21,171 bases of DNA from Escherichia coli (GTDB taxonomy: Bacteria > Pseudomonadota > Gammaproteobacteria > Enterobacterales > Enterobacteriaceae). Shown one piece after another: positions 10,626 to 21,171 of this stretch. A model generated the notes under the pieces. The model was not told the DNA's origin. It searched no databases and worked only from the letters and a program-made list of their open reading frames with translations. A program made the translations under genes and the position numbers. Numbering within the stretch: position 1 is the first letter of the stretch; each line of letters begins with the position of its first letter. Location: NCBI RefSeq assembly GCF_003334355.1, contig NZ_QOWP01000047.1; one strand, written 5' to 3'.

Positions 10626-10702
10626 AAGAATTTAGCCGTTTTTTATGCGCGATTAAGTGATTATAAAACAGAGGGTTTATGAATGATTGCGCTTTTTATC
10701 TG

Positions 10703-10774
10703 AAAAAAAGACGCGGTTTAATGCCTGCATGCGTCGAACCGTTGGCCGGAGAGGGCGCTTAGGCCGCCTCCGGC
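10703..10774 (-). terminator. Probable modF terminator region (two stem-loops; the distal one is followed by a U7 tract)
   Basis: GC-rich hairpin GCCGGAG...CTCCGGC (10745-10774) directly after the modF stop, then a second hairpin GACGC...GCGTC followed by TTTTTTT on the minus strand (complement of the A-run at 10703-10709). Confidence 0.45.
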
Positions 10775-17026: not shown

Positions 17027-18058
<1,032 letters not shown>

Positions 18059-18070
18059 CCGCTGATTTAC

Positions 18071-18094
18071 CCGGCGCAGTCTCTCCTGCGCCGG
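18071..18094. terminator. GC-rich stem-loop between convergent pgl and ybhD (possible shared terminator)
   Basis: CCGGCGCAG (18071-18079) / CTGCGCCGG (18086-18094) form a 9-bp stem with loop TCTCTC; no strong U-tract on either side, so it may be rho-dependent or only a stabilising hairpin. Confidence 0.4.
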
Positions 18095-18098
18095 TGTA

Positions 18099-19052
18099 TT
18101 AACCTATCTCCTGTAACGCGTGTCTCTGGCGTTCGACGATATTGGTCCACAAATTGTCTTTATCGTCAGTCCATAAATTAATCAGCAAGGCAAAAAAGCG
18201 TTCTGCTGCTGGAGAAAGTACGGCATCTTTACGGCGAATTATTCCCAATGTTCGACGTATAACGGGTTCCACCAATGGGATACCAATAATCGAAGAATAG
18301 GGCGCATGAGGCATTGCCAGGCCAGGAAGCGCCGAAATCCCCAGTCCCGCCTCCACCAGTCCTAATGACGTCGAAAGATGACGCACTTCGTAAAACCAGT
18401 CCAGCTTCCAGGGCTTGTCGGCCAGCTGTTGTTCTATCAACAGTCGGTTGCCGCTGGAGGAGCGTACGCCAATCATTTTGTAACCCACTAACTCCTGCCA
18501 TTCTACAAGCTGCTTTTTGGCCAATGGATGGTCACGCCGACAGGCCAGCACGAACGGCTCGTTGACCAGTGGGGTAAAATCAATGGATGAATTTGTGACG
18601 TTGTTCATGTTTATGCCAAAGTCTGATTCGTTACACAGCACCGATTCCATGCAATTATTCGTGCCTTGTTCCAGAATCCGCACTTTAATATTGGGATACA
18701 GCTCATTAAATTTACCGATTGCCAGCGGTAAAAAATAAAATACTGCGGTCGGAATACACGCTAACGTCACCATACCACGATGATAAGCATTCATATCACG
18801 AATATTAAAAAGCGTTTCATCGAATTTCTTTATTAATTCCCGCGCCTCCGGGAGCAACCTTTTTCCTGCTTTTGTTAACGTAACCTTGCGAGTTGTACGC
18901 TCAAATAGTTGAATATGTAAATCTTCCTCCATCTTTTTTATTCTTCGCGTTAATGCAGGTTGCGTAATATTGAGTAATTTAGCGGCATTGTTAAACGAAC
19001 TGGACTCTGCCAGTATGACAAATGCCTTCATACTTGATAATTCATGCTTCAT
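18099..19052 (-). CDS. ybhD: LysR-family transcriptional regulator (uncharacterised)
   Basis: 317 aa starting MKHELSSMKAFVILAESSSFNNAAKLLNITQPALTRRIKKME (LysR HTH); GGAG ribosome-binding site upstream of the ATG at 19052. The ORF track extends 21 codons further (19115) with no support. Confidence 0.9.
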   Translation of the reverse strand: MKHELSSMKAFVILAESSSFNNAAKLLNITQPALTRRIKKMEEDLHIQLFERTTRKVTLTKAGKRLLPEARELIKKFDETLFNIRDMNAYHRGMVTLACIPTAVFYFLPLAIGKFNELYPNIKVRILEQGTNNCMESVLCNESDFGINMNNVTNSSIDFTPLVNEPFVLACRRDHPLAKKQLVEWQELVGYKMIGVRSSSGNRLLIEQQLADKPWKLDWFYEVRHLSTSLGLVEAGLGISALPGLAMPHAPYSSIIGIPLVEPVIRRTLGIIRRKDAVLSPAAERFFALLINLWTDDKDNLWTNIVERQRHALQEIG

Positions 19053-19235
19053 TATTACTCCGGAAAATGGAAGCGACGATTTTGGGTGGCTGGCCGTTAA
19101 AAATTTTAACTGCATTTAGCCAACTTAAATTAATGAAAAAATGTTATTAATCGTTGAGCTAAAGTCATTAGAGATGCTTTGCCCTTAATGTAACCATATC
19201 GCAATAAGTTATGTTTTTAAATTGAGGGCATTATT

Positions 19236-20288
19236 ATGAAAAAAATACCCTGCGTGATGATGCGAGGTGGAACCTCGAGGGGCGCGTTCCTGTTAGCGGA
19301 ACATTTACCCGAAGATCAAACGCAGCGCGATAAAATATTGATGGCAATTATGGGTTCCGGTAACGATCTGGAAATTGACGGTATTGGCGGCGGTAATCCA
19401 CTGACCAGTAAAGTCGCCATTATTAGCCGTTCCAGCGATCCGCGTGCTGATGTCGATTATCTGTTTGCGCAGGTAATCGTTCATGAGCAACGTGTCGATA
19501 CCACGCCTAACTGCGGCAATATGCTGTCTGGTGTTGGGGCATTCGCCATTGAAAATGGTTTGATTGCAGCGACTTCGCCAGTTACTCGCGTACGTATCCG
19601 CAACGTCAATACGGGTACGTTCATCGAAGCTGATGTGCAAACGCCAAATGGTGTTGTCGAGTACGAGGGTAGCGCCAGAATTGACGGCGTACCGGGTACT
19701 GCCGCACCGGTTGCGCTCACTTTCCTGAATGCCGCTGGAACCAAAACCGGAAAAGTTTTCCCGACTGATAATCAGATTGATTATTTTGACGATGTCCCGG
19801 TGACCTGTATCGATATGGCGATGCCAGTCGTCATTATTCCGGCTGAATATCTGGGAAAAACAGGTTATGAATTACCGGCGGAACTGGATGCCGACAAAGC
19901 ATTATTAGCCCGCATTGAATCTATCCGTCTACAAGCGGGTAAAGCAATGGGCTTAGGTGATGTCAGTAATATGGTTATCCCTAAACCTGTGCTTATTTCT
20001 CCAGCGCAGAAAGGCGGGGCAATTAATGTGCGTTATTTTATGCCGCATTCTTGCCATCGCGCGCTGGCGATAACCGGTGCTATTGCTATTTCCAGTAGTT
20101 GTGCATTGGAAGGCACCGTCACCCGACAAATCGTCCTTTCTGTAGGATACGGCAATATCAATATTGAACACCCCAGTGGTGCGCTCGACGTTCATTTAAG
20201 TAATGAAGGTCAGGATGCCACGACGTTACGCGCATCTGTTATTCGGACGACCAGAAAAATATTTTCCGGTGAAGTTTATCTTCCCTGA
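19236..20288 (+). CDS. ybhH: PrpF / methylaconitate-isomerase-like putative isomerase (diaminopimelate-epimerase fold)
   Basis: 350 aa ORF; GAGGG ribosome-binding site; contains a TPNCGNM motif reminiscent of the catalytic Cys region of the PrpF/DapF-like fold; recognised as E. coli YbhH. Confidence 0.9.
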   Translation: MKKIPCVMMRGGTSRGAFLLAEHLPEDQTQRDKILMAIMGSGNDLEIDGIGGGNPLTSKVAIISRSSDPRADVDYLFAQVIVHEQRVDTTPNCGNMLSGVGAFAIENGLIAATSPVTRVRIRNVNTGTFIEADVQTPNGVVEYEGSARIDGVPGTAAPVALTFLNAAGTKTGKVFPTDNQIDYFDDVPVTCIDMAMPVVIIPAEYLGKTGYELPAELDADKALLARIESIRLQAGKAMGLGDVSNMVIPKPVLISPAQKGGAINVRYFMPHSCHRALAITGAIAISSSCALEGTVTRQIVLSVGYGNINIEHPSGALDVHLSNEGQDATTLRASVIRTTRKIFSGEVYLP

Positions 20289-20327
20289 AAAAATTCGTTG
20301 TCAGGATAAGGACAATCAATAAAGGAC

Positions 20328-20348
20328 TTCTGTATGAGTCATACAGAA
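20328..20348. promoter_or_regulatory. 21-bp perfect palindrome between ybhH and ybhI
   Basis: TTCTGTATGA-G-TCATACAGAA; the two 10-nt arms are exact reverse complements; 16 bp upstream of the ybhI ATG. Confidence 0.5.
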
Positions 20349-20363
20349 AGAACAGGATTTTAA

Positions 20364-21098
20364 ATGAATAAGAAATCGTTATGGAAGCTAATTCTGATAT
20401 TAGCGATCCCATGTATTATTGGCTTTATGCCAGCTCCGGCAGGATTAAGCGAACTGGCGTGGGTGCTTTTTGGTATTTACCTGGCGGCCATTGTGGGGCT
20501 GGTTATCAAGCCTTTCCCGGAACCTGTCGTACTGTTAATTGCCGTTGCTGCCTCAATGGTGGTGGTCGGTAACTTATCCGACGGTGCGTTTAAAACCACC
20601 GCCGTATTAAGCGGTTACTCTTCAGGTACCACCTGGCTGGTGTTCTCGGCGTTTACCTTAAGCGCCGCATTTGTGACCACCGGTTTAGGTAAACGTATTG
20701 CCTATCTGCTGATTGGTAAAATCGGTAACACCACGCTGGGTCTGGGTTACGTTACGGTATTCCTCGATCTGGTACTGGCTCCGGCAACACCGTCTAACAC
20801 CGCGCGTGCGGGCGGCATTGTGTTACCGATCATCAACAGCGTGGCGGTGGCTTTGGGGTCCGAACCGGAAAAAAGTCCGCGTCGTGTCGGACATTACCTG
20901 ATGATGTCCATTTACATGGTCACCAAAACCACCAGCTATATGTTCTTTACCGCAATGGCGGGGAACATTCTGGCGCTGAAAATGATCAACGACATTCTGC
21001 ACCTGCAAATTAGCTGGGGTGGATGGGCGCTGGCAGCCGGATTGCCGGGCATCATTATGCTGCTGGTCACCCCGCTGGTGATTTACACCATGTACTGA
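20364..21098 (+). pseudogene. ybhI: DASS-family (divalent anion:Na+ symporter-type) transporter YbhI, N-terminal 244 codons only, interrupted by an IS10 insertion
   Basis: The hydrophobic multi-helix translation is recognised as the N-terminal half of YbhI (about 477 aa in reference K-12 as I recall). The reading frame ends ...VIYTMY-TGA, where the TGA is supplied by the first bases of the IS10 terminus (CTGATGAATCCCC). Confidence 0.85.
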
Positions 21099-21171
21099 TG
21101 AATCCCCTAATGATTTTTATCAAAATCATTAAGTTAAGGTAGATACACATCTTGTCATATGATCAAATGGT
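21095..21171 (+). mobile_element. Terminus (outside end) of IS10 / Tn10-type insertion sequence, partial, running off the window
   Basis: CTGATGAATCCCCTAATGATTTTTATCAAAATCATTAAGTTAAGGTAGATACACATCTTGTCATATGATCAAATGG is recognised as the IS10 terminal inverted repeat and adjacent transposase-promoter region, including an IHF-like site (TATCAAAATCATTA) and the Dam GATC site at 21161-21164. The transposase ATG would lie about 30 bp past the window end. Confidence 0.8.

Follow-up and report, generated by a model that had tools for sequence, protein, structure and literature searches.

What do the four adjacent Escherichia coli K-12 genes ybhD, ybhH, ybhI and ybhJ (b0768-b0771) do? These "y" genes have gone without a substrate for decades, and their K-12 RefSeq labels read putative regulator, putative isomerase, putative tricarboxylate transporter and putative hydratase. 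We examined the locus in a stretch of 21,171 nucleotides of an E. coli genome (contig NZ_QOWP01000047.1 of assembly GCF_003334355.1), referred to below as the window. Comparison narrows the candidates to one cheap compound, trans-aconitate. On a modest balance of probability, we consider ybhD/ybhH-ybhI(-ybhJ) to be the enterobacterial form of a widespread LysR-controlled cassette for the uptake of an unsaturated tricarboxylate, most probably trans-aconitate or a close analogue, that feeds citrate/aconitate metabolism. The locus itself is known and has been partly studied; what is new here is that a specific substrate is predicted and that a widely used protein family model probably carries a wrong name. 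The initial annotation of the window had called the module uncharacterised, with no substrate or inducer assigned. The latter still stands, as the literature searched for ybhH, ybhI, ybhJ and YbhD contains no substrate or effector assignment and a 2024 review of LysR regulators gives the effector of YbhD as unknown. The former does not, since control by YbhD has been published (Rodionova et al. 2022, PMC9068703) and a structure of YbhH has been solved (PDB 6OTV).

The locus has the following parts in the window.

18099 to 19052, minus strand: ybhD, gene of a LysR-type regulator of 317 aa, intact, with the RefSeq start ATG at 19052.
19053 to 19235, 183 bp: divergent control region, identical to K-12.
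19236 to 20288, plus strand: ybhH, gene of a PrpF-superfamily 1,3-allylic isomerase of 350 aa, intact.
19410 to 19412 and 19512 to 19514, plus strand: codons of the YbhH catalytic pair Lys59 and Cys93, aligned to K66 and C100 of LigU.
20364 to 21094, plus strand: 5' half of ybhI, gene of a DASS-family carboxylate transporter, truncated, with 243 of 477 codons.
21095 to 21171: outside end of the insertion sequence (IS) IS10, IS10-left sequence variant, 77 nt, running up to the window end.

All coordinates initially given for ybhD and for the isomerase and transporter genes divergent from it hold, as do the length and position of the 183-bp region between them. Because the region is present to at least 80% in one piece in 5321 of 5426 complete E. 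coli genomes, ybhD, ybhH and ybhI are real genes and not chance open reading frames (ORFs). Positions 18000-21094 are 100% identical to strain ATCC 8739. Relative to K-12, there are 14 single-nucleotide polymorphisms in 4.1 kb, which result in YbhD V47I and YbhH P301L, and no frameshifts. The view of ybhH and ybhI as a two-gene unit has to be corrected. In wild-type E. coli (ATCC 8739 and K-12 RefSeq), ybhJ starts 182 bp after ybhI, beyond the window, and encodes a 753-aa aconitase-family "hydratase"; the neighbours around ybhH are pgl, ybhD, ybhI, ybhJ and ybhC. The natural unit is thus ybhD divergent from the three genes ybhH-ybhI-ybhJ.

The proposal starts from the isomerase. YbhH matches Pfam PF04303 (PrpF) over residues 1-350 with an E-value of 1.7e-167 and carries the NCGN motif noted earlier as N92-C93-G94-N95. 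The structure 6OTV, deposited as "Putative isomerase YbhH", is of a protein identical to that of the window save for P301L and confirms the PrpF/DapF-like fold. Lys59 and Cys93 align with K66 and C100 of LigU and are both invariant in 11 aligned sequences; in LigU, these residues reportedly form the catalytic Lys/Cys pair, about 34 residues apart. The profile and structure comparison with the PrpF families, in which fold or catalytic residues might have proved absent, thus came out in favour of the assignment. The description of YbhH as PrpF/methylaconitate-isomerase-like was correct for the superfamily, the fold and the Lys/Cys pair, but not for the type: with 185.9 bits against a cut-off of 440.55 on TIGR02334 (AcnD-associated 2-methylaconitate isomerase PrpF), YbhH is, as judged by profile score, not a PrpF of the AcnD-partner type. 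No prpB, prpC or acnD neighbours of ybhH were found at the E. coli locus.

Aconitate isomerases of the same superfamily have been measured. In Bacillus velezensis FZB42, trans-aconitate is the inducer of the tarR/tarAB system, which comprises the LysR regulator TarR, its gene divergent across a spacer of 173 bp, the PrpF-family aconitate isomerase TarA and the MFS importer TarB (Zheng et al. 2024, ISME J, PMC11495376). In the same study, the purified Pseudomonas enzymes AI-7-1, AI-16-1, AI-32-1 and AI-41-1 had 88-101% of the forward activity of TarA (Table S4); with TarA as the reference, the aconitate isomerase activity of AI-7-1 and AI-16-1 was 88-96% in the forward and 107-115% in the reverse direction, while second homologues from the same Pseudomonas strains reached 2-4% forward activity. 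We linked YbhH to the active enzymes via their cloning primers, not via deposited protein sequence. The primers of the active set (Table S2) encode the N-terminus QRIPCV and the C-termini FRRLAG, AQRLAG or LRRLAG, which are the termini of Pseudomonas proteins of the YbhH clade; those of the low-activity set encode canonical PrpF ends (AHVPQV ... VPGDSF). When species-representative genomes were scanned for a pattern derived from the primers, 49 Pseudomonas loci were obtained. Six genomes of the P. putida group contain one 359-aa ORF whose two ends are exact matches to the primers of both AI-7-1 and AI-16-1. This ORF (P. mosselii, L017:3979-5055) is 60% identical to YbhH over the full length and lies in a LysR/isomerase/SDF/CitMHS gene arrangement. 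The four active Pseudomonas enzymes belong to the same clade as YbhH, with 59-64% identity to it, the same Lys/Cys pair and the same set of clade-specific residues, 42 in number, described below. Their loci likewise have an orthologous divergent LysR gene (51-54% identity to YbhD) and carboxylate transporter genes downstream; they differ from the E. coli locus in having other transporter families and an outer-membrane porin, and in lacking a ybhJ-like hydratase. For TarA itself, the relation is taken from Table S6 of the same paper, where TarA homologues of Shigella and E. albertii are listed at ~40% identity.

A different substrate would follow from the name under which YbhH appears in annotated genomes. 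YbhH passes the cut-off of the equivalog model NF033377 ("4-oxalomesaconate tautomerase") with 514.7 bits against 440, and for this reason the Prokaryotic Genome Annotation Pipeline (PGAP) names it 4-oxalomesaconate tautomerase. Taken at face value, YbhH would be a 4-oxalomesaconate tautomerase/isomerase like LigU/GalD, the cassette would scavenge ring-fission tricarboxylates (4-oxalomesaconate, KCH) from gallate or lignin degraders, and YbhJ would be the hydratase. LigU is indeed the closest functionally characterised solved relative of YbhH (E-value 1e-92), with the Lys/Cys pair aligned, and 4-oxalomesaconate, being a tricarboxylate as well, would suit the transporters. The likeness to LigU/GalD, the (4E)-oxalomesaconate delta-isomerase (PDB 6P3H, 6P3J, 6P3K), extends to the fold, the Lys/Cys 1,3-allylic proton shift, membership in NF033377 and an unsaturated tricarboxylate as substrate. 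However, identity of YbhH to LigU is 44-48%, against 60% to the aconitate-isomerase type and 61-85% to homologues linked to transporter genes. In 42 alignment columns, among them R120, R122, N123, C191 and C273, the residue is invariant in ten clade members and different in LigU. Of the columns that distinguish the aconitate-isomerase type from LigU, 80 have the isomerase residue in YbhH and 25 the LigU residue. By these alignments, YbhH sits with the aconitate isomerases and not with the 4-oxalomesaconate isomerases inside the NF033377 family.

The model does not decide between the two activities. The primer-matched aconitate isomerase ORF of P. mosselii also passes NF033377, with 519.2 bits against the cut-off of 440, so the name of the model does not separate them. 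NF033377 and the PGAP name derived from it thus probably lump aconitate and 4-oxalomesaconate isomerases, and "4-oxalomesaconate tautomerase", the name given to nearly all named matches, may be wrong for the YbhH clade.

Gene context bears on the same point. We surveyed 11 loci, including that of E. coli, with homologues 61-85% identical to YbhH. A divergent LysR gene and the isomerase gene, followed by carboxylate transport genes, form a constant core in 11 of 11 loci, while the transporter family switches among DASS, SDF, CitMHS, MFS and TctCBA, often with an OprD-type porin. The genes that follow the isomerase gene are these.

E. coli, Citrobacter koseri and Edwardsiella: DASS transporter, aconitase-like hydratase.
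Klebsiella: DASS transporter, CitMHS transporter, aconitase-like hydratase.
Several Pseudomonas: DctA-like SDF transporter, CitMHS transporter, OprD-type porin.
Other Pseudomonas: OprD-type porin, TctC-TctB-TctA, 2-hydroxyacid dehydrogenase.
Dickeya zeae and Enterobacter cloacae: MFS transporter, FAH-family gene, citC-citD-citE-citF-citX (with citG in addition in E. cloacae).

In Dickeya zeae and E. cloacae, the ybhH-like gene heads a same-strand run (L007 11553-16935 and L011 9482-15089, respectively), followed by acnB in Dickeya; from this arrangement, the imported acid may be routed to citrate lyase. In P. mosselii, the tricarballylate genes tcuA-tcuB (L017 261-2874) directly adjoin the LysR/isomerase/transporter cluster, giving a small plant-tricarboxylate island. 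In Klebsiella and Edwardsiella, the four genes travel as a group to different chromosomal sites. A constant pair of regulator and isomerase with interchangeable tricarboxylate transporters suggests one common substrate that needs only isomerisation before it enters central metabolism.

The genes expected around a 4-oxalomesaconate isomerase are missing from this picture. LigU/GalD genes, which serve the protocatechuate 4,5-cleavage and gallate pathways, have genes for a ring-cleavage dioxygenase, a hydratase and an aldolase around them, whereas in none of the 11 loci did we find a ring-cleavage dioxygenase, a LigJ/GalB-type hydratase or a clustered aldolase (LigK/GalC), and the window has none of these genes either. 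A single RraA-like gene was seen, in Dickeya; it is ~4 kb upstream and closes a run of genes for an iron ABC transporter. To our knowledge, E. coli does not degrade gallate or protocatechuate via 4,5-cleavage. The 2-hydroxyacid dehydrogenase gene at the end of the TctCBA-type clusters would suit a 2-oxo acid and is thus a point for the ring-fission substrate. With all this considered, we regard 4-oxalomesaconate as an improbable substrate of the cassette.

For the majority of K. pneumoniae clones, trans-aconitate can serve as the only carbon source, Ozaenae and CC82 being clones that have lost its use (PMC2656620), and we have seen the E. coli-type cluster in K. quasipneumoniae, which is of the same species group. 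This fits the proposal, and the support is circumstantial.

The control region was inspected for sites of YbhD, and two candidate boxes were found.

19129 to 19151: candidate YbhD recognition site ATTAAT-N11-ATTAAT (T-N11-A, 6-bp dyad), with its centre 96 bp upstream of the ybhH ATG.
19159 to 19171: second conserved box CTAAAGTCATTAG, candidate activation-site half of an operator for a transcriptional regulator of the LysR type (LTTR), eight bases downstream of the first box.

The half-sites of the first box lie at 19129-19134 and 19146-19151, and the motif ATTAAT-N11-ATTAAT has its sole match in the window here, against 0.27 expected by chance. The box reads ATTAAT-N11-ATCAAT in C. koseri and Edwardsiella and is again a perfect ATTAAT-N11-ATTAAT in Dickeya. 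The second box is 71 bp upstream of the ybhH ATG; within it, TAAAGTCATTAG does not vary between E. coli, C. koseri and Edwardsiella, and GACATTAG is found in Dickeya and E. cloacae. The two boxes are spaced as expected for the recognition and activation sites of an LTTR, and YbhD would bind to them. The initial annotation had placed a T-N11-A site and both promoters in this spacer. A candidate for the former is present, whereas a simple scan of 19053-19235 revealed no consensus sigma-70 promoter; a consensus sigma-70 match is often absent in regulated promoters.

The start of ybhD sets the length of this spacer. In the ORF list, the minus-strand ORF of ybhD spans 18099-19115, and the RefSeq start, in the identical ATCC 8739 gene and in K-12, is 19052. 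An alternative start would be the ATG at 19115, 63 nt upstream, which would give a protein of 338 aa and take up a third of the spacer. The start at 19052 is favoured, as proteins of other species align only from there. A CRP site was also looked for, and scanning for TGTGA-N6-TCACA with up to 3 mismatches gave none in 19053-19235 and a whole-window count below chance. A genomic SELEX (systematic evolution of ligands by exponential enrichment) study lists ybhH among the CRP targets; because the CRP scan of the spacer was empty, that report cannot be placed on the sequence. A sigma-S site has been reported inside ybhD.

YbhD has all the marks of a LysR-type regulator: an N-terminal helix-turn-helix and a substrate-binding domain, a divergent target operon and a T-N11-A site. 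It is matched over residues 4-292 by 54 NCBIfam LysR models, none of them above its own cut-off. Identity of YbhD to the LysR proteins encoded beside YbhH homologues in Dickeya, Enterobacter and Pseudomonas is 51-59%, which suggests that these regulators are orthologous and share an effector. Deletion of ybhD in K-12 strongly increased ybhH expression and altered growth on glycerol plus L-malate, and a single YbhD site was obtained by the exonuclease-based form of chromatin immunoprecipitation (ChIP-exo), with a claimed input from Nac (PMC9068703). Repression of ybhH by YbhD is thus shown in K-12 by published work; from the comparisons above, we infer that the site is the one described here and that trans- or cis-aconitate is the effector.

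The other two proteins of the cassette can be accommodated in the same scheme. Wild-type YbhI scores 553.9 bits on TIGR00785 (DASS), with a cut-off of 198.6. Its nearest solved relatives are the chloroplast exchangers DiT1 (2-oxoglutarate/malate) and DiT2 (glutamate/malate) and the bacterial DASS chain 6WTW, which we take to be the exchanger LaINDY. The E. coli DASS proteins CitT (citrate) and TtdT (tartrate) are exchangers that work with succinate in anaerobic use. By analogy, YbhI probably exchanges the incoming acid for a C4-dicarboxylate, and derepressed exchange of this kind could explain the malate phenotype of the ybhD deletion. In an alignment with pig mitochondrial aconitase, several features prove to be conserved in YbhJ: the motifs IHQ and DSHT, three Fe-S cysteines (CSGGNYE has one of them, CGPC two), two substrate arginines (RNFPNR) and the catalytic Ser-x-Arg (GSARE). 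On the AcnD model, YbhJ obtains 63 bits against a cut-off of 1420. In a study that used quantitative reverse-transcription PCR (PMC10972114), ybhJ was 18-fold up when E. coli had Chlamydomonas as nutrient source compared with LB, a rise that may be a sign of an inducing acid from algae or plants.

The cassette would then work as follows. YbhI would import the acid, probably in exchange for a C4-dicarboxylate. YbhH would shift the double bond via Lys59 and Cys93 to give cis-aconitate; this type of reaction is established for the family, and the substrate is suggested by the 60% identity to the active enzymes. YbhJ, as an aconitase-type Fe-S hydratase, would hydrate the product. YbhD, acting on the ATTAAT-N11-ATTAAT and CATTAG boxes (19129-19171), would keep ybhH(IJ) low until the effector arrives. 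trans-Aconitate is a classic aconitase inhibitor. We think it possible, though somewhat short of an even chance, that E. coli and its relatives carry in these genes an unrecognised trans-aconitate pathway in full, with import by YbhI, perhaps in exchange for succinate or malate, isomerisation to cis-aconitate by YbhH, YbhJ as a dedicated aconitase working despite abundant trans-aconitate, and YbhD sensing the acid.

Several observations weigh against trans-aconitate as the substrate. In the literature searched, there is no report of growth of E. coli on trans-aconitate or of induction by it. Extracellular trans-aconitate builds up to 37 g/L with an engineered W3110 strain, for which removal of ybh genes is not mentioned (PMC12492653). 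The Providencia enzyme AI-79, with an E. coli-like C-terminus and the only one of enterobacterial type assayed, had <1% activity; it was cloned from an internal RGGTSK start and lacks the first residues (PMC11495376). The K-12 phenotype concerns L-malate and not aconitate (PMC9068703), and YbhD behaves as a repressor while TarR is an activator. Plain aconitate would not call for ybhJ, given AcnA and AcnB, and this redundancy hints at a modified substrate. Finally, 60% identity is no guarantee of the same substrate.

Some of these points would be better explained by another carboxylate, be it a substituted aconitate (methyl- or homo-), itaconate, mesaconate, citraconate or a malate-linked exchange, with YbhJ providing a specific hydration step. 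In addition to the redundancy of ybhJ for plain cis-aconitate and the altered growth of the ybhD deletion on glycerol plus L-malate, such a substrate would agree with the likeness of YbhI to the 2-oxoglutarate/malate exchangers and with the range of the PrpF-family enzymes, which take several allylic acids, e.g., methylitaconate (3G7K) and methylaconitate (2PVZ). On the other hand, it is on aconitate that clade members 60% identical to YbhH have been measured to be active, the transporters encoded alongside are of kinds typical for tricarboxylates (CitMHS, TctCBA, OprD-family porins), citrate lyase genes are co-clustered in two genera, and derepression of an exchanger could have the malate effect as a mere by-product. 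Therefore, we consider another carboxylate rather unlikely, and trans-aconitate or a close analogue is retained as the favoured substrate. The tricarboxylate theme that had been read from the window at the outset agrees with the family memberships and the gene context.

Among known systems, tarR/tarA-tarB of B. velezensis FZB42 has the same layout as the ybh cassette. Both have a LysR gene divergent across a spacer of ~170-180 bp, a PrpF-superfamily isomerase gene and an importer gene in one operon, a product (a predicted one for ybh) that goes straight into the tricarboxylic acid (TCA) cycle, and AT-rich 6-bp palindromes in the shared promoter region (TTATAA in tar, ATTAAT in ybh). They differ in the importer, which is MFS (TarB) in tar and DASS in ybh, in the aconitase-like third gene, which tar lacks, and in the regulator, as TarR is an activator triggered by trans-aconitate whereas YbhD behaves as a repressor in K-12. 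The AcnD-PrpF pair of the 2-methylcitrate cycle (Shewanella PrpF, PDB 2PVZ and 5K87) likewise combines a PrpF-family isomerase with an aconitase-family enzyme acting on a tricarboxylate. In contrast, YbhH and YbhJ fail the TIGR02334 and AcnD models, and the ybh locus has a transporter gene and a dedicated LysR gene instead of prpB and prpC. Closer to home, the E. coli loci ttdR/ttdA-ttdB-ttdT (L-tartrate) and citT (citrate) encode DASS transporters of the same group as YbhI. In the ttd module, as proposed here for ybh, a divergent LysR regulator controls an operon for an Fe-S hydro-lyase and a transporter, with other substrates and enzymes. Succinate exchange and anaerobic use, which belong to TtdT and CitT, apply to YbhI by analogy only.

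In the strain of the window, the cassette is interrupted. ybhI is 100% identical to ATCC 8739 up to 21094, and the outside end of IS10 begins at 21095, so the cut ORF terminates at the TGA at 21096-21098 and has 244 codons instead of 477. Residues 1-243 of the 477 are kept, and the C-terminal half with the second DASS signature region (FSNSYGG) is gone. Because this whole half is missing, signature region included, the truncated YbhI transporter, as judged from its sequence, cannot work. The initial annotation had taken the module to be inactivated by IS10; ybhI is cut, but ybhD and ybhH are intact, and the statement was too broad. In this strain, uptake is lost and a polar effect on ybhJ is possible, and only the loss of uptake is clear. 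The IS10 cut itself is ordinary.

The 77-nt IS end matches ISVsa5 (IS10-right type) in 73 of 77 bases and is identical (77/77) to the IS10 copy that borders a gltS-like gene, tetR(B), tet(B) and tetC in strain AR_0089, i.e., the left end of Tn10. A partial RNA-OUT match at 21140-21171 on the minus strand (E-value 2.5e-4) agrees with the identity and orientation of IS10. As the window ends 77 nt into the element, a lone IS10 and a whole Tn10 look the same in it. The ybhI::IS10 junction of this strain occurs in 0 of the 5426 complete E. coli genomes. The best genome matches with 100% coverage were considered as carriers of this insertion and proved to have IS10 in ybhD instead. Among the matches listed, seven genomes have IS10 within ybhD, all with the same 4433-bp span. 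In strain CUPF06, the one checked, the element is IS10 (ISVsa5) with a 9-bp target duplication, TACACAGCA, which corresponds to 18632-18640 in the window; the other six genomes with this span are complete, are 98.4-99.7% identical to the window and come from pigs, poultry, urine and river water. IS10 in the repressor gene ybhD could mark a hot spot for insertion, or derepression of ybhHIJ could have been selected for. In the pigeon strains PT62 and LP5-1, ybhH is split (annotated twice as "PrpF domain-containing protein"), and the annotation of the locus includes IS1B, an IS3-family element and ISVsa5, which makes this a further case of independent disruption. That the IS end in the window is the IS10-left variant found at the Tn10 edge, and that ybhD and ybhH are hit by other IS insertions in natural isolates, bears on the earlier idea that the module was lost under laboratory conditions.

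With insertions of IS10 in ybhD (the seven genomes above), of IS1/IS3 in ybhH (the two pigeon strains) and of IS10 in ybhI (the window), one may ask whether the cassette in E. coli is a dispensable and mostly silent remnant, IS10 marking the neutral decay of an unused locus. The lack of a growth phenotype on any tricarboxylate in the literature searched and the absence of a consensus promoter from the scan would go with such decay. Against it, the region is kept in one piece in nearly all complete genomes, by the count given above; there is one residue difference from K-12 per protein and no frameshift; the four genes move together to different chromosomal sites in Klebsiella and Edwardsiella; ybhH responds to YbhD; and ybhJ rises with the alga. 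We regard decay of an unused locus as very improbable.

trans-Aconitate is abundant in grasses, maize and sugar cane and hence in the diets of herbivores. If the cassette does serve trans-aconitate, the metabolic map of E. coli would gain an extra carbon-source pathway, YbhD would gain an effector, which would be useful for a biosensor, and the extra aconitase-like enzyme in the cluster would have a reason. It would also prompt the correction of a protein name that is spread widely across genomes.

The spacer of 75 bp between ybhH and ybhI contains one further element.

20328 to 20348, plus strand: perfect 21-nt palindrome TTCTGTATGA-G-TCATACAGAA, predicted intercistronic hairpin.

This palindrome folds better than shuffled sequences (z = -2.76), and its arms CTGTAT/ATACAG are kept in C. 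koseri and weak in Edwardsiella and Klebsiella. No plus-strand intrinsic terminator was found in the 75-bp spacer, the palindrome being terminator-like on the minus strand only; because of this, co-transcription of ybhH and ybhI is plausible. The palindrome was also considered as a LexA box and rejected on reading the sequence, as its spacing is CTG-N11-CAG and that of LexA is N10.

An Rfam scan gave a match to Ysr283, a Yersinia antisense small RNA, at 20829-21080 on the minus strand inside ybhI, with 32 bits against a gathering score of 58. It probably reflects coding-sequence similarity to the Yersinia homologue and not an RNA gene. The Rfam matches to Ysr283 and isrA, both under their gathering scores and within coding sequence, were set aside as noise.

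Outside the cassette, a GC-rich inverted repeat, CCGGCGCAG-TCTCTC-CTGCGCCGG, was read by eye at 18071-18094, in the 40-bp gap between the convergent genes pgl and ybhD; it is probably a terminator hairpin common to both. A tRNA-Lys (UUU) gene lies at 208-283, and a second copy is cut by the window start (1-82), the two stretches being 98.8% identical. Over 21094 bases, the window shows 40 mismatches to ATCC 8739 (99.8% identity), so its strain is related to ATCC 8739 but distinct from it, and the galE-modF spacer, at about 10702-10709, has a run of A8 where ATCC 8739 has A7.

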